64,000 nucleotides of DNA from Gammaproteobacteria bacterium (GCA_026989015.1 JALSKD010000177.1:401-64400); one strand, 5' to 3'. Positions 617 through 9,811 are shown, counted from the first letter of the stretch. Notes: generated by a model not told the origin, from the sequence alone. A program made the numbers and translations.

Positions 617-703
617 GCCGGGGTGGCGGAACTGGTAGACGCAGCGGATTCAAAATCCGCCGGTGGCGACACCTTGGGGGTTCGAGTCCCCCCCCCGGTA
701 CCA
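617..703 (+). tRNA. tRNA-Leu (anticodon CAA)
   Basis: GCCGGGG acceptor stem pairing with CCCCGGT, with A as discriminator and CCA at the 3' end. Anticodon stem GCGGA/TCCGC encloses loop TTCAAAA. Long Leu-type variable arm. T-arm GGGGG-TTCGAGT-CCCCC. Length 87 nt. Confidence 0.9.
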
Positions 704-774: not shown

Positions 775-1402
775 CATGAACAGACTCGCTTCTCTCCTTT
801 GCGCCTTCACCCTCGTCCTCGTCAGCGTCCACGCCGCCGCACAGGCCCCGGGCTACCGTTACCAGCCCTATGCCCAGTACCCCAACTACCAGCAACAATC
901 ACCGGTGGAGCTGCTTCAGATGGCCATCAATGTGCTGCAGGATTACATCAAGACCGGCAAGTTCAACAATCCGGACGAGGTGGTGGCCTTCCTCGACGCC
1001 AATTTCTCGCAGTTTTTCGATTTCGAGCAAATGGCACGCTGGGCCGCCGGCTATCACTATGCGCGCATGAACTCGGCGCAGCGCTATATCTTCCAGACCA
1101 ACCTCAAGCGCCTGTTCTTCGCCGCCTTCGCGCGCATCATCAGCGCCTACGGCGACAAGCAGCCCCGGGTCGAATTCCTGCCGCCACGGCGCATCAGCTA
1201 CAACGAGGTGCTGGTCACCGCGCGCATCACCCCGTCCACCGGCGGTTACCCGGTCCGCGTCGATTTCCGCTTCGCCCAGGGTCCGCTGGGCTGGAAGATC
1301 TATGATGTCGGCACCAACGGCAGCTCCGCGGTGGCCTATTACCGCGCCTACTTCAACAATCTGATCCGTACCCGGGGCTACGGCGCGCTGCTGCAGCAGT
1401 AA
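775..1402 (+). CDS. MlaC/Ttg2D-family periplasmic (phospho)lipid-binding protein with signal peptide
   Basis: MNRLASLLCAFTLVLVSVHAAAQA signal peptide. The C-terminal half (…YIFQTNLKRLFFAAFARIISAYGD…VRVDFRFAQGPLGWKIYDVGTNGSSAVAYYRAYFNNLIRTRGYGALLQ) aligns by eye to E. coli MlaC (…REAYFAAFREYL…[48 protein letters not shown]). The track ORF 587..1402 begins upstream inside the tRNA; the true start is the ATG at 775. Confidence 0.7.
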
Positions 1403-1420: not shown

Positions 1421-2359
1421 ATGGACACTCATCGTCTGCTCGTCAAGCTGAGCACCCGGATCCTGCTGCAATTCCTGCTGGCGCTGGTGCTGGTGGCCGT
1501 TGCCATCGGCATGAACCTGGATTTCCTGCGCGGCTTCTACTTCGAAAACCAGCAGACCCCGACCGGCGTCATCCTCAACAGCGTGATCGTCGGTATCCTG
1601 CTGATCGGCCTGCTCAACCTGCTGTGGCTGCTGCTGCGCTACCGTCGCGAGGAGGCAGCCATTGCCGGCTTCGTCGAAAACATCGAGGCGATCCGCCCCG
1701 ATCCGACCGAGGGGCTGGACCCGCACAGCCTGATCGCCAAGCGTTATGCGACGATGAAATCCATCAGCGCGGTGCACGGCGAGATCAACCACAACGCGCT
1801 GGCAGCGATGCTCACCGCCGACGAGGGCACGCGCCTCGGCCTGGTGCGCTTTATCAACAACATCCTGATTCTCACCGGTGTGTTCGGCACCATCGTCTCG
1901 CTATCGATCGCCCTGCTCGGCGCTTCCGACCTGATTGAATCCGCCGGCACCGGACTCGACGGCATGGGACTGGTGATCCACGGCATGTCCACCGCCCTGT
2001 CCACCACCATCACCGCCATCGTCAGCTATGCGCTGTTCGGCTATTTCTTCCTGCGCCTCAAGGATGTGCAGACTCACCTGATCAGCGGCATCGAACACCT
2101 GACCTCGGTCTACCTGATTCCGCGTTTCGTCAAGCGCAGCGAAGACCTGCTGACCCAGGTCAGTGGCCTGATCAAGGGTGTCATCCGCGCCACCGAGAAG
2201 ATGAACGAAACCCAGGAGACCTACCGCTCCTCCGCCAGCACGCTGCTGCAGATCCTGTCCGGGCACAAGCAGCAGATGGACCGGCTGGCCGGCGACATCG
2301 GCGAGATCAAAGCCATACTGCGCGACGGCTTCCGCCTGCCCGAGCCGCCCGCCGAGTAA
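1421..2359 (+). CDS. MotA/TolQ/ExbB-family proton channel (stator A-subunit-like), 4 TM
   Basis: TM1-TM2 pair at the N-terminus, a cytoplasmic loop of about 80 aa, then a TM3-TM4 pair containing the family motifs ILTGVFGTIVSLSIAL and GMSTALSTTITAIVSYALFGYFF. A cytoplasmic tail of about 100 aa follows. AAGGA ribosome-binding site 8 nt upstream. Only 18 nt separate it from the MlaC-like gene. Confidence 0.7.
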   Translation: MDTHRLLVKLSTRILLQFLLALVLVAVAIGMNLDFLRGFYFENQQTPTGVILNSVIVGILLIGLLNLLWLLLRYRREEAAIAGFVENIEAIRPDPTEGLDPHSLIAKRYATMKSISAVHGEINHNALAAMLTADEGTRLGLVRFINNILILTGVFGTIVSLSIALLGASDLIESAGTGLDGMGLVIHGMSTALSTTITAIVSYALFGYFFLRLKDVQTHLISGIEHLTSVYLIPRFVKRSEDLLTQVSGLIKGVIRATEKMNETQETYRSSASTLLQILSGHKQQMDRLAGDIGEIKAILRDGFRLPEPPAE

Positions 2360-2365
2360 CGCGCG

Positions 2366-3364
2366 ATGAGCGCCTTTCCCAGCCTCGGCCCGCACAGCCT
2401 CGACTCGGACAATGAGGGCGGTTCCTTCTGGCCTTCCTTCACCGACATCATGATGGTGGTGGTGATGATCTTCCTGTTCGCCACCAGCCTGCTGATCGTG
2501 CGCAACTGGAACCTGGTCGCCGAGCTGCAGGCCAGTCTTGAGGCCGAGCGCCTGGCCGAGCAGATGATCCAGAGCACAACCGAGGAAAACGCCACACTGG
2601 AAGAGCGTCTGACCAATGCCGAGCAGCTCAATTCCATTCTCCGGCTGCGCCTGCTGGAAAAGGAAGAGCAACTGAAGCGGGACCAGCAGGAAATCGCCGC
2701 ACGGCAGCTTCGGATTCAGCAACTGGAGGAAGCGCAACAACAGCTGCAGGCGCAGAAGGCGTCCCTCGATCAGCGCATCCGCAGCATCGAACAGGAACTC
2801 GACAGCACACGCAGCGAACTGGTGAGCAGCAAGGACGAGACCCGCAGCCTTGCCGAGCGTCTGGCGCTTCAGGAGCAGCGCCTCGAGCAACAGCAGTTGC
2901 AGGTGAAAACCGCCCGCGAGCAGCTCGAACAGGCCCGGCAGCGCATCGCCAGCCTGAGCGCCCGCAACCAGGAACAACAACAGAAGATCGGTCTGCTGGA
3001 GCAGGAGAAGATCGACTACAACCGCCAGTTGCTGACCCTCAAGGGCGAGTACGAGGTGGTCAAATCCAAGTACGAGGAGCTGATCAAGCCGGCGCGCACC
3101 GCCAAGGGCAAGTATGTGGCCGAGGTCTACTATGTAAAGGGCAAGAAGGGCAAGGTCATCCGTTTCAAGGAACCGGGCGACGCCACCTTCCGCAACCTCA
3201 GCCTGGAACAGGTGGAAGCCCGCCTGGCCGAACTGAAGCAGGAAAAGGGCAAGGACCTGTATGTCAAGATCATCATCCCCAAGGACAGCGGCCTGACCTA
3301 CAACGAAGCCTGGAATTTCATGAAGAACCTGCTCGAGAAATACGACTACTACTATCAGCAGTGA
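2366..3364 (+). CDS. MotB/TolR/ExbD-like membrane anchor with long periplasmic coiled-coil and novel C-terminal domain (no OmpA domain)
   Basis: N-terminus GGSFWPSFTDIMMVVVMIFLFATSLLIV matches the MotB plug/TM (W..[FY][AT]D[LM]M) and retains the catalytic Asp at position 27. Residues about 53-245 are Gln/Glu/Leu/Arg-rich heptad coiled-coil. The C-terminal region of about 95 aa (KGKYVAEVYYVKGKKGKVIRFKEPGD…YDYYYQQ) is unlike OmpA_C. The start is 6 nt after the motA-like stop. Confidence 0.6.
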   Translation: MSAFPSLGPHSLDSDNEGGSFWPSFTDIMMVVVMIFLFATSLLIVRNWNLVAELQASLEAERLAEQMIQSTTEENATLEERLTNAEQLNSILRLRLLEKEEQLKRDQQEIAARQLRIQQLEEAQQQLQAQKASLDQRIRSIEQELDSTRSELVSSKDETRSLAERLALQEQRLEQQQLQVKTAREQLEQARQRIASLSARNQEQQQKIGLLEQEKIDYNRQLLTLKGEYEVVKSKYEELIKPARTAKGKYVAEVYYVKGKKGKVIRFKEPGDATFRNLSLEQVEARLAELKQEKGKDLYVKIIIPKDSGLTYNEAWNFMKNLLEKYDYYYQQ

Positions 3365-3849
3365 ATCCGTCCATGGAAAAGATACTGGTCAGCGCCTGCC
3401 TGCTCGGCGCTCCACTGCGTTACGACGGTGCGGACAACCGCTGCGATCACCCCCTGCTCGACCGCTGGTCGCGGCAAGGCCGCCTGATCGACATCTGCCC
3501 GGAAACCGCTGGCGGGCTGCCCACGCCACGCCCGCCCGCCGAGCGGAGGGGCGGTCGCGTCGTGACCGCCCGCGGAGACGACCTCACCGAAGCCTTCTCC
3601 CGCGGCGCTGCCGCCGCCGTGGACCTGTGCCGGACCCACGACATTCGCCTTGCCCTGCTGGCCGCACGCAGCCCCTCCTGCGGCAACCGCATGATCTACG
3701 ACGGCCGGTTCAGCGGCCGCCTGATCCCCGGCGCCGGTGTGACCGCCGAACGGCTGCAGGCCATCGGAGTGCGGGTTTTCGAGCCTGCGCAGATCGATGA
3801 ACTGGCCGCCACACTGAACCGCCTCGAAACGGAGAACGCCCATGCGTAA
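3361..3849 (+). CDS. DUF523 (TudS-like, 2-thiouracil desulfidase family) protein
   Basis: The VSACLLGAPLRYDG and SPSCG cysteine motifs are typical of DUF523 (a recollection, not a search). The track start is GTG at 3361; an ATG lies in frame at 3373. It overlaps the preceding stop, consistent with translational coupling. Confidence 0.7.
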   Translation: MNPSMEKILVSACLLGAPLRYDGADNRCDHPLLDRWSRQGRLIDICPETAGGLPTPRPPAERRGGRVVTARGDDLTEAFSRGAAAAVDLCRTHDIRLALLAARSPSCGNRMIYDGRFSGRLIPGAGVTAERLQAIGVRVFEPAQIDELAATLNRLETENAHA

Positions 3850-4453
3850 TGCCTGGCCTGCCCTGCTCGCCCTGCTGTTCGTCGCCCTCTCGATCTGGTC
3901 GGCCATCGAACCCGCCTCGCGGGAAGTCTGGATCGCGGAAGTGATTCCGGTGTTCGCCGCCTTTCTGCTGCTGCTCCTTACCTATCCAAAGTTCCGTTTC
4001 AGCAACACCGCCTACACGCTGATGACCGGCTGGCTGATCCTGCACACCATCGGCGCCCATTACACCTTCGCCAATGTGCCCTTCGACTGGTTCAACCGGC
4101 TGATCGGCTCCGAACGCAACCAGTTCGATCGGGTAGCCCACTACATCATCGGCTTCTATGCCTACCCGATGGCCGAGTTCCTCTACCGCAAGGGCTACAG
4201 CGGCAAATACCTCGCCAGCCTGTTCGGGCTGTTCTTCATCATGAGCGTGGCCGCCGGCTACGAAATCATCGAATGGATCTATGCCGACCTCGAAGGCGGC
4301 GAGGCGGGCATCGAATTCCTCGGCTCCCAGGGCGACATCTGGGACGCCCAAAAGGACATGCTGGCCGACACCCTGGGTGCGGTCACCAGCCTGCTGTTGT
4401 TCCTGTGGATGTACCGGGGGCGTCCGGTACGGCTGTCTACCGGTGAAGCCTGA
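3842..4453 (+). CDS. DUF2238/YjdF-like inner-membrane protein
   Basis: Multi-TM protein …TGWLILHTIGAHYTFANVPFDWFNRLIGSERNQFDRVAHY…; the family assignment is from memory. ATG at 3842 overlaps the DUF523 stop by 8 nt. Confidence 0.55.
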   Translation: MRNAWPALLALLFVALSIWSAIEPASREVWIAEVIPVFAAFLLLLLTYPKFRFSNTAYTLMTGWLILHTIGAHYTFANVPFDWFNRLIGSERNQFDRVAHYIIGFYAYPMAEFLYRKGYSGKYLASLFGLFFIMSVAAGYEIIEWIYADLEGGEAGIEFLGSQGDIWDAQKDMLADTLGAVTSLLLFLWMYRGRPVRLSTGEA

Positions 4454-4949
4454 ACCCCGCGAGCGCCCGCTGATCCGCCCGATGGGCACAGAGGACTTCG
4501 CCACCTTCTGGCCCGTGTTTCGCGCCATCGTGCAGGCGCGCGACAGCTACGCCATCGACCCGGACATCGGTTTCGAGGCGGCCCGCAGCCACTGGCTGGA
4601 ACACCCCCTCGAAACCCGTGCCGCCTTCATCGGCGACCGGCTGGCCGGAAGCTATTACCTGAAAGCGAATTTCGACGGTCCCGCCGATCACATCGGCAAC
4701 TGCGGCTTCATGGTCGATCCGCGGTTTCGCGGGCGCGGTATCGCCCATGCAATGGCCGAGGAGGCGCTGGTCCGGGCCCGCCAAGCCGGTTTCTCGGCCC
4801 TGCAATTCAACCTGGTGCTCGCCAGCAACGCTCCGGCGCTGCACCTGTGGCGCAGCCTCGGTTTTGCCGAAATCGGCCGCATTCCGGATGCCTACCGCCA
4901 CCGTGATCTGGATCAGGTGGATGCCCTCGTCATGTACCGGCGGCTGTGA
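4443..4949 (+). CDS. GNAT family N-acetyltransferase
   Basis: …CGFMVDPRFRGRGIAHAMAEEALVRARQAGFSALQFNLVLASNAPALHLWRSLGFAEIGRI… is a GNAT core fold. A GTG start at 4443 would overlap the upstream stop; the first ATG is at 4482. Confidence 0.75.
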   Translation: MKPEPRERPLIRPMGTEDFATFWPVFRAIVQARDSYAIDPDIGFEAARSHWLEHPLETRAAFIGDRLAGSYYLKANFDGPADHIGNCGFMVDPRFRGRGIAHAMAEEALVRARQAGFSALQFNLVLASNAPALHLWRSLGFAEIGRIPDAYRHRDLDQVDALVMYRRL

Positions 4950-4986
4950 GAAGATCATCCTGATCCGAACCCCGGAGATCCCAACG

Positions 4987-5439
4987 ATGGAACTGGCGCT
5001 GATTCACCCGATGCTGGTGCATTTCCCGCTGGCGCTGATGCCGCTTGTGGTTTTGCTGCAGGTCTGGGGATTGATCCGAGGCGAGGCCCTGTTCGGCCGG
5101 AACTGCCTGGCGCGCAGCCTGCTGTGGCTGACGGCCGTGGCCGGACTGTCGGCAATCGCCGCTGCCCTGTTCGGCGACACGGCGCTGGACATCGCCGTCG
5201 AACGCGGTTTCCCTCCCGACACGCTCGAAGACCACCAGTCCCTGGGCCAGACCAGCGCGCTGCTGATGGCCGCACTGGCCGTCATCCATGCCCTGCTCTA
5301 CCTGCGGCAGACGGATTCGCGGGGCGGCCCTGGCCTGAGCCTGCTCATCATCAGCAGCGCGGTCCTCATCATCCTGCTGACGACGGCTTTCTATGGCGGC
5401 AACTTGGTTTATGTGCTCGGGGTCAATGTCGCCGGCTGA
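4987..5439 (+). CDS. DUF2231-like small membrane protein
   Basis: MELALIHPMLVHFPLALMPLVVLLQVWGLI…; the MLVHFPLAL signature and 4 TM segments are typical of DUF2231 (from memory). ATG at 4987. Confidence 0.55.
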   Translation: MELALIHPMLVHFPLALMPLVVLLQVWGLIRGEALFGRNCLARSLLWLTAVAGLSAIAAALFGDTALDIAVERGFPPDTLEDHQSLGQTSALLMAALAVIHALLYLRQTDSRGGPGLSLLIISSAVLIILLTTAFYGGNLVYVLGVNVAG

Positions 5440-6137
5440 CAGCGTCGACATCCATTACAGCCGGCTCGGCCCTGTTCGACCAAGTCCCGCAAGCGCCGCC
5501 CCGGGCAGTCTTCGAATACCTCTTCGAGCACCGTCATCCGTTCAATGCGGTCGATGCGAAAATTGCGCAGGGCCTGTCGCAGTTCGCACCAGGCTCCCAG
5601 CGTCCATACCTGCCCCCAGAAGAACAGCCCCAGGGGCCACAGCACCCGCTCGCTGATGCGTTCTTCCAAACTGAGGTAACGTATGGAGAGCTTGTGGCGG
5701 CGATCCACGGCCTGACGCACTTCGGCGAGGCGCAACGCCGTTTGCGGATCCAGCCGCTGCATGGGCGAATACAGTTGGGTGGCATCCAGATCTGCGCGTT
5801 GCGCTTCCGGCACGGCACTGTGGATCTTGCTCAGCGCCGACTGGGCCGCCGTCGCCAGGGCCGGATCACTCCAGCTGTCGACGATGCGCGCACCCAGTGC
5901 CAGGGCCGCCAACTCCTCACGGTCGAACATCAGTGGCGGCAAGTCATAGCCTTTGCGGATCACATAACCGACCCCGGCCTCACCTTCTATGGGCACGGCA
6001 CTGGCCATCAGGTCCTGAATGTCACGATAGATGGTGCGTTTGGAGACTTCGAGGCGTTCCGCCAGCCAGGCCGCCGTGGTCACACGCCGACCGCGCAGGA
6101 ACTGAACGATCCTGAACAGCCGGTCGGCGCGCCGCAT
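5409..6137 (-). CDS. YafY-family transcriptional regulator (wHTH + WYL domain)
   Basis: N-terminal HTH (VTTAAWLAERLEVSKRTIYRDIQDL) and a C-terminal WYL-type region (RVLWPLGLFFWGQVWTLGAWCELRQALRNFRIDRI). The 3' end overlaps the convergent DUF2231 gene by about 30 nt. Confidence 0.8.
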   Translation of the reverse strand: MRRADRLFRIVQFLRGRRVTTAAWLAERLEVSKRTIYRDIQDLMASAVPIEGEAGVGYVIRKGYDLPPLMFDREELAALALGARIVDSWSDPALATAAQSALSKIHSAVPEAQRADLDATQLYSPMQRLDPQTALRLAEVRQAVDRRHKLSIRYLSLEERISERVLWPLGLFFWGQVWTLGAWCELRQALRNFRIDRIERMTVLEEVFEDCPGRRLRDLVEQGRAGCNGCRRCQPATLTPST

Positions 6138-6143
6138 CGTCTG

Positions 6144-6530
6144 TCAATCCCCGCCGCTGAGGGTGATCATGGAGATCACCGCGCCCTGGGGATCCCTGAT
6201 CACGCAGAAGCGCCCGATATCGGGAATATCCCTCGGTGCCATCAGAACCTTGCCGCCCAGTTCCTCTGCAAGCTTGGCGCGGGCATCGACATCATCCACC
6301 GCCACATAGGCACCCCAGCAGGGTGGCATGCCAGCGGCTTCGGCCGGCATCCCCATAACGCCTCCCTGTCCCTGTTCTCCACAGCGAATCACCGCGTAGG
6401 GCTCCTTACCGGGCATGTCCTGATAGGACCAGCCGAACATTCGGCCATAGAAAGCCTGGGCAGCGGCAGGGTCGGTGGTCATCAGTTCGTTCCAGCAGAA
6501 ACTGCCGTGTCCGGGGGTGCGTGTGCTCAT
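6144..6530 (-). CDS. VOC/glyoxalase-like family protein
   Basis: MSTRTPGHGSFCWNELMTTDPAAAQAFYGRMFGWSY…GGKVLMAPRDIPDIGRFCVIRDPQGAVISM is glyoxalase/bleomycin-resistance-fold like. It lies immediately upstream of the YafY regulator in the same operon. The start is taken at the internal ATG of track ORF 6144..6569. Confidence 0.7.
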   Translation of the reverse strand: MSTRTPGHGSFCWNELMTTDPAAAQAFYGRMFGWSYQDMPGKEPYAVIRCGEQGQGGVMGMPAEAAGMPPCWGAYVAVDDVDARAKLAEELGGKVLMAPRDIPDIGRFCVIRDPQGAVISMITLSGGD

Positions 6531-6652: not shown

Positions 6653-9600
6653 TCATTCATCCCCGCTGCCCAGCAACCGGGCGTTGCCGCCGATGGCGGC
6701 GGTGTTGACGGTTACCGTCCGCTCGGTGGCGAAGCGCGGCAGGTAGTGCGGCCCTCCCGCCTTGGGCCCGGTTCCGGACAGGCCTTCGCCACCGAAAGGT
6801 TGCACGCCGACCATGGCGCCAATCATGCTGCGGTTGATGTACAGGTTGCCCACACGGGCGCGGGCCTGCACCCGCCGCCAGGTGGATTCGATGCGGCTGT
6901 GCACTCCAAGGGTGAGCCCGTAACCGGTGGCATTGAGCGTGTCGATCACCCTGTCCAGATCCTTCCCCCGGTAACGGATCACATGCAGGATCGGCCCGAA
7001 ATGCTCGCGTTCGAGCAGGGCCATGTCCTCCAGTTCGAAGGCATGGGGCGCCACGAACACCCCGCCGTCGGTTGTCGCAGGCAAGGTGCAGGCATGGATC
7101 AGCCGCGCCTCGCGATGCAGACGCTCGATGTGCGCCAGCAGGTCATCGCGCGCCGCATCGTCGATCACCGGTCCGACATCGGTACGCAGCAGTGCCGGAT
7201 CACCGATGACCAGCCGCTGCATGGCACCCGCCAGCATCTCGATGACCCGGTCGGCAATCTCCTGCTGCAGGTACAGCACCCGCAACGCCGAACAGCGTTG
7301 TCCGCTGGAGCCAAACGCCGAGGTGAGGACATCCCTCACCACCTGTTCGGGCAGGGCCGAACTGTCCACCAGCATCGCGTTCTGGCCGCCGGTTTCGGCG
7401 ATCAGCACGGCGATGGGGCCTTGCCGCGCCGCCAGTGTGCGGTTGATGGACGCGGCGGTTTCGGTGGAGCCGGTAAACACCACACCGGCCACCTTCGGGT
7501 GAGCGCAGAGCTGGCTACCCAGGGTTTCGCCGCGCCCCGGCAACAGCTGCAACACGGTCTCCGGGACACCCGCTTCAATGAAGCATTCGGTAGCCAACCG
7601 GGCGATACCTACCGTCTGTTCGGCAGGCTTGGCAATGACGCTGTTGCCGGCCACCAGAGCGGCCGCCACCTGACCGCTGAAAATGGCCAGCGGAAAGTTC
7701 CAGGGGCTGATGCAGACGAAGACCCCCCGGCCGTGGTGGAACAGCCGATTGCGCTCGCCGGTGGGCCCGGGCAGGTCCAGCGGCGACAGGGCACGCCGCG
7801 CCTCGGCCGCGTAGTAGCGACAGAAATCCGCTGCCTCGCGGACCTCGGCCAGGGCATCGGGCAGGGTTTTGCCGGCTTCCTCGACACACAGGCGCATGAA
7901 ATGCTCCCGCTTGAGTTCGATCAGATCGGCGGCGCGCTCCAGGCATTCGGCCCGCTGTTCCAGCCTGCACGCATCCCACCCCGGCTGGGCGGCATGGGAC
8001 TGCTCAACCGCCGCATCGACGCTGGCCGCGTCCGGCTCGATCCAGTGGCCGAGCTGCCTGCGCCGTTGCGGACAGCGTATCGGCCAGCGGGCAGCCGCTT
8101 TCCAGGAAACGGCCATCAGCGGCGTGACTTCCGCAGGCAGGCAGGGGCTGGCCTGCAGTCCCTCCGCCAGCGTTTTCTGCAGGCTGAAGTCGGCCAGAAA
8201 CAGACCCCGCGAATTGCGCCGTTGCGGCAGAAACAGCTCGGGCGGTTTGGGTATCGCCGGATTGGCGACCGTTTTCAGGGCGCGCAGCCGTCGCAGCGGA
8301 TCACCCACCACCGCCTCCGGTGGCTGCTGTTCATCGAGTATGCGGTTGACGAAGGAGGTGTTGGCACCGTTTTCCAGCAACCGCCGCACCAGGTAGGGCA
8401 GCAGATCTTGGTGGCTGCCCACCGGCGCATAGACCCGGCAGCGCAGGTCAGCGCCAGCCTCCTCGCTCACCACCCGGTAGAGCTGGGCACCCATGCCGTG
8501 CAGGCGCTGGAATTCGAAGCCCTGCAAGTCGCCGGCCCAGGCCAATACGGCGGCGATGCCGTGGGCATTGTGGGTGGCCAGTTGCGGATAGAAACACTCG
8601 CGGCGATCGAGCAGAAAACGCGCACCCGCCAGCCAGGAGACATCGCTGTTGATCTTTCGGGTGAACACCGGGTAGTCATCGAGTCCCCGCTCCTGGGCCA
8701 GCTTGATTTCGGTATCCCAGTAAGCGCCCTTGACCAGCCGCACCGGGATACGCCGCCGATGCGTCCGTGCCCGTTCTTCCAGCCATTCGAGCACCGCCAT
8801 CGAGCGTTTCTGATAGGCCTGAACGGCCAGCCCCAGTCCGTCCCATCCGCGCAGCCGCCGGTCCTCCAGCAAGCGGTCGAACAGCAGCAGGCTGATTTCC
8901 AGGCGATCCGCCTCTTCCGCATCCAGGGTCAGGCCGATACCGGCTTCACGGGCTGCCAGAGCCAGTTCGCTCAGCCGTGGCAGCAACTCTTCCAGCAGGA
9001 CTCCGATCTGGGCGGGTTCGTAGCGCGGGTGCAAGGCCGATAGCTTGATCGAGATGCCGTGCCGACGCATCGGGTCGTGTTCGCCGGGGCGGTCAGCCGC
9101 CAACGCATCGATGGCCTGCAGGTAGGCCTGATGATAGCGTTCGGCATCGGCATCGGTCAGCGCGGCCTCGCCGAGCATGTCGAAGGAACAGAGGGCGCTG
9201 TCCTGTTCCGGCTCACGCGCACGCTTCAGCGCATCGTCGATGCCGCGCCCCATGACGAATTGACGCGCCATGATCTTCATCGCCTGGCGCAGGGCGAGCT
9301 GGATGACCGGTTCGCCGCTGCGCCGGACCAGCTGCCCAAACCAGCTCCGCCAGCCCTGCTCGCGTTCGGGATCGATGTCGATGATGCGGCCGGTGAGCAT
9401 CAGCCCCCAGGTGGAAGCATTGACGAACAGCGAATCGCTGTGGCCCAGGTGCCGTTCCCAGCGGGCCTGGGCGATCTTGTCCTCGATCAGTCGTTCCGCG
9501 GTCTCCTCGTCGGGAATGCGCAGCAAGGCCTCGGCGATGCACATCAGCAGCACACCCTCTTCCGAGGACAGGTCGTATTCGTGCATGAAGGCGTCGATGG

Positions 9601-9811
9601 CGCTGCGTTCGCCACTGCGGGCGCGGACGGAGCGCACCCAGTCTGCCGCCCGTTGTTCAATGGAGCCGGCGAGCGCTTCATGGCCCTGCAATACGGTCAG
9701 GCGGTCCGCGACAATCCGTGCCTCGTCGGCCAATGCATCGCGGTGCAGGCTTTCGGGAAGAGCGGCCTCTTCGAGTAACCCGGGCTCAAGAACAAAAGCG
9801 TGCGGCGGCAT
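6653..9811 (-). CDS. putA: Bifunctional proline dehydrogenase / 1-pyrroline-5-carboxylate dehydrogenase PutA (no N-terminal RHH DNA-binding domain)
   Basis: 1052 aa. An N-terminal PRODH barrel region plus a C-terminal ALDH domain (…ETGGQNAMLVDSSALPEQVV…GQRCSALRVLYLQ…). Confidence 0.9.
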   Translation of the reverse strand: MPPHAFVLEPGLLEEAALPESLHRDALADEARIVADRLTVLQGHEALAGSIEQRAADWVRSVRARSGERSAIDAFMHEYDLSSEEGVLLMCIAEALLRIPDEETAERLIEDKIAQARWERHLGHSDSLFVNASTWGLMLTGRIIDIDPEREQGWRSWFGQLVRRSGEPVIQLALRQAMKIMARQFVMGRGIDDALKRAREPEQDSALCSFDMLGEAALTDADAERYHQAYLQAIDALAADRPGEHDPMRRHGISIKLSALHPRYEPAQIGVLLEELLPRLSELALAAREAGIGLTLDAEEADRLEISLLLFDRLLEDRRLRGWDGLGLAVQAYQKRSMAVLEWLEERARTHRRRIPVRLVKGAYWDTEIKLAQERGLDDYPVFTRKINSDVSWLAGARFLLDRRECFYPQLATHNAHGIAAVLAWAGDLQGFEFQRLHGMGAQLYRVVSEEAGADLRCRVYAPVGSHQDLLPYLVRRLLENGANTSFVNRILDEQQPPEAVVGDPLRRLRALKTVANPAIPKPPELFLPQRRNSRGLFLADFSLQKTLAEGLQASPCLPAEVTPLMAVSWKAAARWPIRCPQRRRQLGHWIEPDAASVDAAVEQSHAAQPGWDACRLEQRAECLERAADLIELKREHFMRLCVEEAGKTLPDALAEVREAADFCRYYAAEARRALSPLDLPGPTGERNRLFHHGRGVFVCISPWNFPLAIFSGQVAAALVAGNSVIAKPAEQTVGIARLATECFIEAGVPETVLQLLPGRGETLGSQLCAHPKVAGVVFTGSTETAASINRTLAARQGPIAVLIAETGGQNAMLVDSSALPEQVVRDVLTSAFGSSGQRCSALRVLYLQQEIADRVIEMLAGAMQRLVIGDPALLRTDVGPVIDDAARDDLLAHIERLHREARLIHACTLPATTDGGVFVAPHAFELEDMALLEREHFGPILHVIRYRGKDLDRVIDTLNATGYGLTLGVHSRIESTWRRVQARARVGNLYINRSMIGAMVGVQPFGGEGLSGTGPKAGGPHYLPRFATERTVTVNTAAIGGNARLLGSGDE

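Follow-up and report, generated by a model that had tools for sequence, protein, structure and literature searches.

We analysed a window of DNA, that is, a whole stretch of 64,000 nucleotides (nt) from a Gammaproteobacteria bacterium (GCA_026989015.1 JALSKD010000177.1:401-64400), in which two adjacent genes, here called A and B, encode a putative ion-driven membrane motor. The B protein consists of an N-terminal pore helix, a coiled-coil stalk and a C-terminal domain of TolR-like fold (Table 1), and the same gene model was also returned by independent gene calling on the source record, a 145.8-kb metagenome contig in the ENA. The stop codon of A lies 6 nt ahead of the start of B. A protein search found 1840 homologues of B, the top-scoring ones being full length with 56–100% identity; B is therefore a real gene and not a chance open reading frame (ORF). 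Its nearest named relative, at 80% identity, comes from a Sedimenticola metagenome-assembled genome (MAG). Members of the A-B family are common among sulfur-oxidising Gammaproteobacteria of sediments; they also occur in Desulfuromonadales and, judging from source names, in other lineages, and the sequence identity among B homologues tracks taxonomy.

By fold and motifs, the A-B pair belongs to the MotAB/ExbBD/TolQR/ZorAB superfamily. The family was not described in the literature searched, including two evolutionary surveys (PMC12505986 and PMC12204202). Neither protein reaches its Pfam threshold (PF02472 for B and PF01618 for A), which makes the system invisible to current annotation. Many B homologues carry Joint Genome Institute (JGI) labels such as 'chromosome segregation ATPase', 'SbcCD ATPase subunit' and 'nuclease with TOPRIM domain', and they owe these names to coiled-coil similarity only. 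An SMC/SbcC-type ATPase, as the labels would imply, was rejected, as the ATPase domain is absent and the likeness lies in the coiled coil only.

Table 1. Features of the A-B locus, with positions counted from the first letter of the window (aa, amino acids; TM, transmembrane helix; HTH, helix-turn-helix)
Feature	Position	Strand	Basis or remark
B (putative axle) subunit gene, ATG start, 332 aa	2366..3364	+	ORF and homologue alignment
Transmembrane helix, B residues 20-45, with invariant FWPSFTD27	2423..2500	+	Family alignment and PDB profile matches
Predicted coiled-coil stalk, B residues 46-238	2501..3079	+	Heptad frame, periodicity, heptad-quantised lengths, charge pairs
Alpha/beta domain of predicted TolR/ExbD-like fold, B residues 239-332	3080..3361	+	Motifs PAR, LYVKIIIP, EAW, YDYYYQ
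A subunit, 312 aa, four TM helices, divergent MotA/ExbB/TolQ family	1421..2359	+	Adjacency, PF01618, AlphaFold2/Foldseek
GVFGT, A residues 153-157 (TM3); Thr157 = TolQ Thr145 / ExbB Thr148	1877..1891	+	Invariant; hhalign to TolQ
HGMSTALSTT, A residues 187-196 (TM4); Thr196 = TolQ Thr178 / ExbB Thr181	1979..2008	+	Invariant; hhalign to TolQ
MlaC-family periplasmic protein (signal peptide, then Tyr/Pro/Gln-rich tail)	776..1402	+	PF05494 E=1.6e-25
tRNA-Leu(CAA)	617-703	+	72 nt upstream of the MlaC-family gene
2-thiouracil desulfurase family ORF (PF04463)	3361-3849	+	Possible GTG start overlaps the B stop codon by 4 nt
WYL-domain/HTH regulator	5409-6137	-	Seems unrelated to A-B
1052-aa ORF, putative bifunctional proline dehydrogenase PutA by sequence look	6653-9811	-	Seems unrelated to A-B

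The earlier note on this DNA had read the N-terminus of B as a plug helix of the MotB/TolR/ExbD type with a protonatable aspartate, and our comparisons bear this out. The codon of Asp27 (gac, 2444-2446) lies within GGSFWPSFTD27IMMVVVMIFLF, and an alignment of 34 homologues showed the columns F21, W22, P23, F25, T26 and D27 to be invariant. The helix aligned without gaps to E. coli TolR (D23), E. coli ExbD (D25) and the Asp of Shewanella ZorB. When the PDB was searched with profiles, the full-length B family profile matched the ZorB chain 8vvn_B over the pore helix (E=5.7e-5), and the N-terminal profile matched the ZorB chains 8vvn_B (E=1.9e-6), 8vvi_A (0.008) and 8qyd_F (0.04). The Pfam family ExbD (PF02472) gave sub-threshold matches in 5 of 20 N-terminal segments of B, and matched neither B as a whole nor its C-terminal domain taken alone. 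One cluster representative of 377 aa (P0464) reads FWPSFTN, with Asn at the site of the pore Asp; either a natural variant, inactive or differently coupled, or a sequencing error could explain this.

The pore helix is followed by a long stalk, in which residues 46–236 contain no Pro and two Gly. The juxtamembrane zone (residues 46–100) and the distal zone (216–238) are conserved, and the middle (100–215) is variable. One and the same heptad frame scores best all the way from about residue 71 to residue 238, and the hydrophobic 3.5-residue periodicity reached z=11.6, a value that none of 2000 shuffles attained. With ~193 residues at ~0.148 nm per residue, the stalk would measure ~28 nm, in agreement with the uninterrupted heptad region of 25–28 nm that had been suggested for it. 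The NCBIfam models of PRK09039 'peptidoglycan-binding protein', NF006542 and NF006543, matched B residues 19–157 (E=1.7e-5) and 20–185 (E=0.0087), respectively. In this comparison, made by model match and name alone, the pore helix and the coiled coil are matched at 24 bits against a cut-off of 388, whereas the peptidoglycan-binding end domain implied by the name is absent from B. From this match, it seems that another annotated family joins a MotB-type helix to a coiled coil.

The length of the stalk changes in units of a heptad, sometimes with offsets of 3 or 4 residues. Insertions and deletions of the coil in the family alignment are exactly 7 residues, and the spacing between the pore Asp and the Pro in the PAR motif, which opens the C-terminal domain, mostly follows the same rule. 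Among the loci and first matches, this spacing took 21 distinct values from 180 to 1139, of which 14 were 5 modulo 7 and 6 were 2 modulo 7. The 112 full-length cluster representatives fell mostly into the same two classes (81 were 5 modulo 7 and 12 were 2 modulo 7), as did their 50 distinct spacings of 124–422 (24 and 11, respectively). Between the two classes lies an offset of 3 or 4 residues, like that of coiled-coil stutters. The Arenicellales-type B proteins, with 754–1261 aa, lack Pro over stretches of up to 1140 residues, and the heptad frame stays constant in them over long runs. In the Arenicellales homologue of locus L078 (B gene at 2542-6327 of that locus, 1261 aa), a tandem repeat at 3782-5307 consists of 6.6 copies of a 231-nt unit with 84% matches; the unit encodes 77 aa, or 11 heptads, and the repeat is a recent whole-heptad expansion of the coiled coil.

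The charges of the stalk bear on how its chains are paired. In 231 family members, the g-to-e' (i to i+5) pairs were attractive in 735 cases and repulsive in 332, against 413:416 and 425:457 at control position pairs, the counts not being independent as they come from related sequences. According to the established coiled-coil rules, g-to-e' complementarity marks a two-stranded coil whose chains run parallel and in register, and the charge pairing supports the prediction that the stalk is a parallel in-register dimer. In a different arrangement, the stalk would form an antiparallel hairpin or its chains would fold back, so that the TolR-like domain would sit beside the membrane as in TolR and ExbD and an antenna of ~14 nm would point towards the cell wall. 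The conserved ends of the coil around a variable middle would suit ends that pack together, the heptad score dips at residues 148–160 (LDSTRSELVSSKDETRS), and heptad quantisation fits a hairpin too. However, the heptad frame crosses this putative hinge unshifted and there is no conserved Gly/Pro break, the insertions and deletions at the hinge are also exactly 7 residues, and the i to i+5 complementarity is that of parallel chains in register. Moreover, the functional tip of a hairpin would be its least conserved region, and an expansion by a 77-aa tandem repeat is typical of simple extended fibres. We thus regard a folded-back stalk as improbable.

The width of the periplasm is 15–40 nm (PMC12905483), and the commonest Asp-to-PAR spacings, 180–229 residues or ~27–34 nm, fall inside this range. 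The suggestion that the stalk is comparable to the width of the periplasm thus holds for the commonest lengths, but not for the whole family, which ranges from 124 to 1139 residues (~18 to ~170 nm). As the length varies this widely and in heptad steps, the stalk is no fixed periplasmic ruler. Its length appears to be bounded below rather than fixed, because of the long tail up to ~170 nm.

The last 95 residues of B form a conserved compact domain, which had been described as novel and as lacking OmpA-C motifs. The second statement stood, as Pfam, even with the limit set at E<=10, matched neither OmpA nor any other family and the fold check gave a TolR-like and not an OmpA-like result; the first has to be revised. 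The TolR-like fold surfaced only through structure prediction and not by sequence searches, since two PDB profile searches with this domain returned chance or coiled-coil matches only. An AlphaFold2 model built on a 44-sequence alignment had a mean predicted local distance difference test score (pLDDT) of 83.9, with 89–97 per 10-residue block in the globular part, and showed the topology strand-strand-(strand)-helix-strand-helix. In a Foldseek search with this model, two TolR entries topped the list by probability (0.82 and 0.54) and by template modelling score (TM-score). TolR is the closest fold, and entry 5by4 is titled as a Tol-Pal stator protein. When the profile of the domain was aligned by hhalign to E. 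coli TolR, a topologically equivalent helix-strand-helix was aligned at a non-significant E=0.22. An exhaustive profile search of 1.84 billion cluster representatives found only 372 proteins with this domain, none of them a link to the large ExbD family; in the best 150 of the 372 matches, the domain was always C-terminal. Another protein search with the same profile returned mostly short fragments. It is well supported by the model that the domain has the TolR/ExbD periplasmic fold, and shared ancestry with TolR/ExbD is probable.

A homologue of A is found directly upstream of B in all of the 80 related loci examined. Against PF01618 (MotA_ExbB), the A protein of the window scored 12.2 bits, below the gathering cut-off of 22.9, and the same family was matched below threshold in 43 of 43 A members (best E=2.1e-5), with no other family matched consistently. 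The AlphaFold2 model of A had a pLDDT of 76.8, and in a Foldseek search with it, ExbB, TolQ, PomA, ZorA and MotA chains filled nearly all of the top 45 places, with a probability of ~1.0 and target-normalised TM-scores of 0.35–0.60. Of the fold matches listed, ZorA (8vvn_D) was the one with most sequence identity (20%). A PDB profile search with A gave helical-bundle noise on residues 230–300 only. The upstream partner had been called MotA-like, and the weak PF01618 matches and the fold matches agree with this. In an hhalign alignment with E. coli TolQ, non-significant at E=0.041, GVFGT157 of A was placed on GLFGT145 and HGMSTALSTT196 on VAPGIAEALIAT (GIAEALIAT178). The role of the pore Asp has been described for the 5:2 motors, together with the two threonines of ExbB/TolQ that contact it (PMC12905483), and A keeps both of these channel threonines (T157 and T196). 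The C-terminal region of A past TM4 has ~100 residues in the AlphaFold2 model. Its residues 243–312 (window 2147-2356, + strand) comprise a predicted 60-residue helix followed by the invariant G303-F304-R305, usually within GFRLP, and the stretch may form a short tail in the cytoplasm whose tip is conserved.

The N-terminus of A (13 residues) had a Lys plus Arg (K+R) count of 2.6, against 10.5 for the TM2–TM3 loop and 0 for the TM3–TM4 loop, which by the positive-inside rule gives a predicted N-in, C-in orientation. This orientation of A and the periplasmic type of fold in the C-terminal domain of B make it most probable that the stalk lies in the periplasm. It is very unlikely that the topology is inverted, with a cytoplasmic coil that would be a ZorA-like tail borne by B. 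The K+R of B is slightly higher after the helix than before it, and coils of 100–170 nm would fit the cytoplasm more easily, but the charges of A give the canonical orientation and the helix of B bears its Asp at the N-terminal end, a placement shared by all characterised homologues. The N-terminus of E. coli ExbD, which is cytoplasmic, is itself acidic and has no Lys or Arg.

All ORFs of the 80 loci were clustered, and only the A and B families were conserved; there was no third conserved gene, and no TonB/TolA-like, Zorya-effector or flagellar neighbour. The flanks differ by clade and consist of housekeeping genes, putatively ThiC, QueA, MnmE, GlnE and TolC as identified by eye from the translations, which suggests a vertically inherited core function. 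A flagellar stator was rejected on the lack of conserved flagellar genes in these neighbourhoods and of an OmpA-like domain (PF00691). An anti-phage sensor, Zorya-like or other, on a ZorAB-type motor would find a basis in ZorB as the best sequence match of the pore helix, in the identity of A with ZorA, and in weak PADLOC matches to ZorB1 (8e-4) and ZorA2 (0.023). ZorA has a long cytoplasmic tail, however, and the tail of A past TM4 is far shorter. B also lacks the peptidoglycan-binding domain of ZorB, no ZorC/D/E-type or other third gene is conserved, the flanks are housekeeping genes and identity tracks taxonomy, and a role in defence can hardly be expected.

We propose, with a probability of about 0.62, that B is the axle subunit of a self-contained two-gene, Tol/Ton-like 5:2 ion-driven motor and carries its own periplasmic reach, with a parallel stalk and a distal TolR-like dimer. 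A 5:2 stoichiometry is described for these motors (PMC12905483). The A5B2 complex would have B oriented N-in and C-out, and on leaving the pore the two B chains would run parallel and in register as a two-stranded coiled coil. In this organism, the stalk would place the dimer of TolR-like domains ~28 nm out from the inner membrane, level with the cell wall or past it and close to the outer membrane. A flow of protons via A to Asp27 would turn A5 relative to B2, and the distal domains would grip a fixed or movable partner, which may be peptidoglycan or, through beta-strand addition, a captured protein. TolR and ExbD capture TolA and TonB in this way. B would thereby merge the roles that are split in Tol/Ton between TolR/ExbD and TolA/TonB, and no gene of the TonB/TolA type accompanies the pair. 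B would be either the fixed part, with the output leaving through the cytoplasmic helix and GFRL end of A, or a turning shaft by analogy with GldM. The process served would be envelope housekeeping and not defence or motility.

Several points weigh against this proposal. No distal partner was found for B, A remains below the Pfam threshold with no significant PDB sequence match, and no sequence link of the C-terminal domain to ExbD/TolR was obtained by Pfam, PDB profile, hhalign or the 1.84-billion search, the Foldseek E-values for this domain being all non-significant. The flanking charges of B alone do not favour N-in (K+R 0.79 before the helix and 1.68 after it). Finally, the Arenicellales-type stalks of 632–1139 residues (~94–170 nm) cannot stand perpendicular in any periplasm, and a reach to the outer membrane is therefore not the whole explanation.

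The proposal also has to be compared with a tethered stator, in which the TolR-like domain would bind peptidoglycan, the coil would be a long leash, and the output would be the rotation of the A pentamer, read in the cytoplasm via the C-terminal helix of A and its GFRL end. Peptidoglycan binding has been proposed for TolR and shown for MotB. TolR, as the closest fold with a stator protein among its entries (5by4), is in line with this possibility, and so are the conserved C-terminal helix of A, which would be cytoplasmic, and its invariant G303-F304-R305. A leash would also tolerate widely differing lengths, which fits the range of 124–1139 residues. On the other hand, a plain leash needs neither an unbroken heptad frame nor length changes in heptads only, and Pfam gave no recognisable peptidoglycan-binding motif in B. 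The distance between inner membrane and cell wall is roughly estimated at ~12–16 nm, and the commonest stalks (180–229 residues, 27–34 nm) exceed it. We consider the tethered stator a possible but doubtful explanation, less probable than the axle proposal.

Among the known motors, the A-B pair resembles the Tol (TolQ-TolR-TolA) and Ton (ExbB-ExbD-TonB) systems in the essential Asp of the pore helix of B, in the TolR periplasmic fold predicted for its C-terminus, and in the ExbB/TolQ fold of A with both channel threonines. Like them, it apparently does housekeeping work in the envelope of diderm bacteria, and it would need to act at a distance across the periplasm. It differs in that B has a coiled coil of ~190 residues (up to 1139 in the family) between helix and domain, whereas TolR and ExbD have a short linker only. 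It also has no separate gene for a TolA/TonB-type transducer. A has four MotA-like TM helices, whereas ExbB and TolQ have three; the position of ExbB Glu176 and TolQ Glu173 is the invariant Thr191 in A, and both proteins miss the Pfam thresholds that would assign them to these families.

With ZorA-ZorB (Zorya type I; 8vvn, 8qyd), the pair shares the best pore-helix match and a 5:2-type motor with one very long coil. In Zorya, the coil is on A and cytoplasmic, whereas here it is on B and would be periplasmic; the peptidoglycan-binding domain of ZorB, the Zorya effector genes and the defence islands were not seen for A-B. With MotA-MotB and PomA-PomB, it shares four TM helices in A, the Asp helix in B and an A gene directly before the B gene, but B has no C-terminal OmpA-like peptidoglycan-binding domain (PF00691) and its loci give no flagellar context. 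GldL-GldM and PorL-PorM of type IX secretion and gliding serve as a working analogy only, in that their single-helix subunit is a long dimeric periplasmic shaft leading to outer-membrane-proximal parts. They show no detectable homology to A-B; the GldM shaft consists of globular domains and not of a coiled coil, GldL has two TM helices, and the charged residues differ. The closest relative is ZorB by pore-helix sequence and TolR by end domain, and by analogy TolQRA or GldLM may come closest in how the system works.

The characterised relatives (Mot, Ton, Tol, Gld and Zorya) have a common small motor core and differ in how the output is transmitted. In A-B, the axle itself would bear a long, rigid coiled coil in exact heptads with the TolR-like domain at its tip. 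If our model holds, the A-B pair would be the simplest known arrangement for the delivery of proton-motive energy across the periplasm, and the family offers a natural series of stalk lengths from ~18 to ~170 nm. With two proteins only, the pair could be used to test whether motors of this class exert a pull, turn a shaft or act as anchors alone. The system should be of interest to motor specialists, since it is compact and open to experiment, occurs widely in sediment bacteria and lacks annotation.

Upstream of the pair, the stop codon of a gene for an MlaC-family protein lies 18 nt ahead of the start of A. The protein scored 26.8 bits against the MlaC model NF011697 (cut-off 195) and 64 against the HpnM model TIGR03481 (cut-off 160), and from these scores we class it as a paralogue, being neither an MlaC nor an HpnM orthologue. 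A gene of this family occurs near A-B in ~12 of the 58 loci with enough flank, in several clades and in differing gene orders. It is directly upstream of A-B only in the clade of the window, and a homologue lies 0.8–2.6 kb downstream of B in three distant loci. In a search from the MlaC side, all close relatives on long-enough contigs precede A-B, and so do 2 of ~62 distant relatives (L129 and L158). Most A-B pairs have no MlaC-family neighbour within 6 kb. By a rough background estimate, the recurrence in several clades and two orders exceeds chance for a family with few copies per genome. The neighbour had been called MlaC-like and named as a possible interaction partner of B; the family assignment stood, but the gene is a clade-limited accessory neighbour and no core component.

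A lipid link through this neighbour is a live minority hypothesis, and the recurrence of the gene gives a testable lead to envelope lipid homeostasis. The motor and the MlaC-family carrier would together power the movement of lipid (phospholipid or hopanoid) between the membranes, with the coiled-coil shaft of B crossing the periplasm and the carrier docking on the distal TolR-like domain, perhaps via its Tyr/Pro-rich N-terminal tail. We consider this unlikely as it stands; if true, it would be a compact genetic link that ties the proton motive force directly to intermembrane lipid transport. The MlaC-family proteins beside A-B (in the window, L003, L004, L008, L019 and L028) have a stretch rich in Tyr, Pro, Gly and Gln straight after the signal peptide, which is probably disordered; for example, it reads APGYRYQPYAQYPNYQQQSP in the window protein and AYGIPYGNPYGGNTYANPYG in that of L019. 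E. coli MlaC has no such stretch. B itself ends in the invariant YDYYYQ, and a docking role of the MlaC-family tail is a speculation. In two loci of the Thiotrichaceae type, a conserved secreted protein of ~180 aa is encoded between B and the MlaC-family gene (L028 7057-7599 and L050 7055-7588), and the two proteins are 61% identical to each other.

The ORFs downstream of B (2-thiouracil desulfurase-like and DUF2238-like) were rejected as parts of the system, as they are syntenic in the closest relative only. Two contigs of the MAG MFD03551.bin.2.30 (L050 and L051) each carry an A-B pair, with near-identical matches to the window proteins, and these paired copies reflect either a duplication or strain heterogeneity within the bin.

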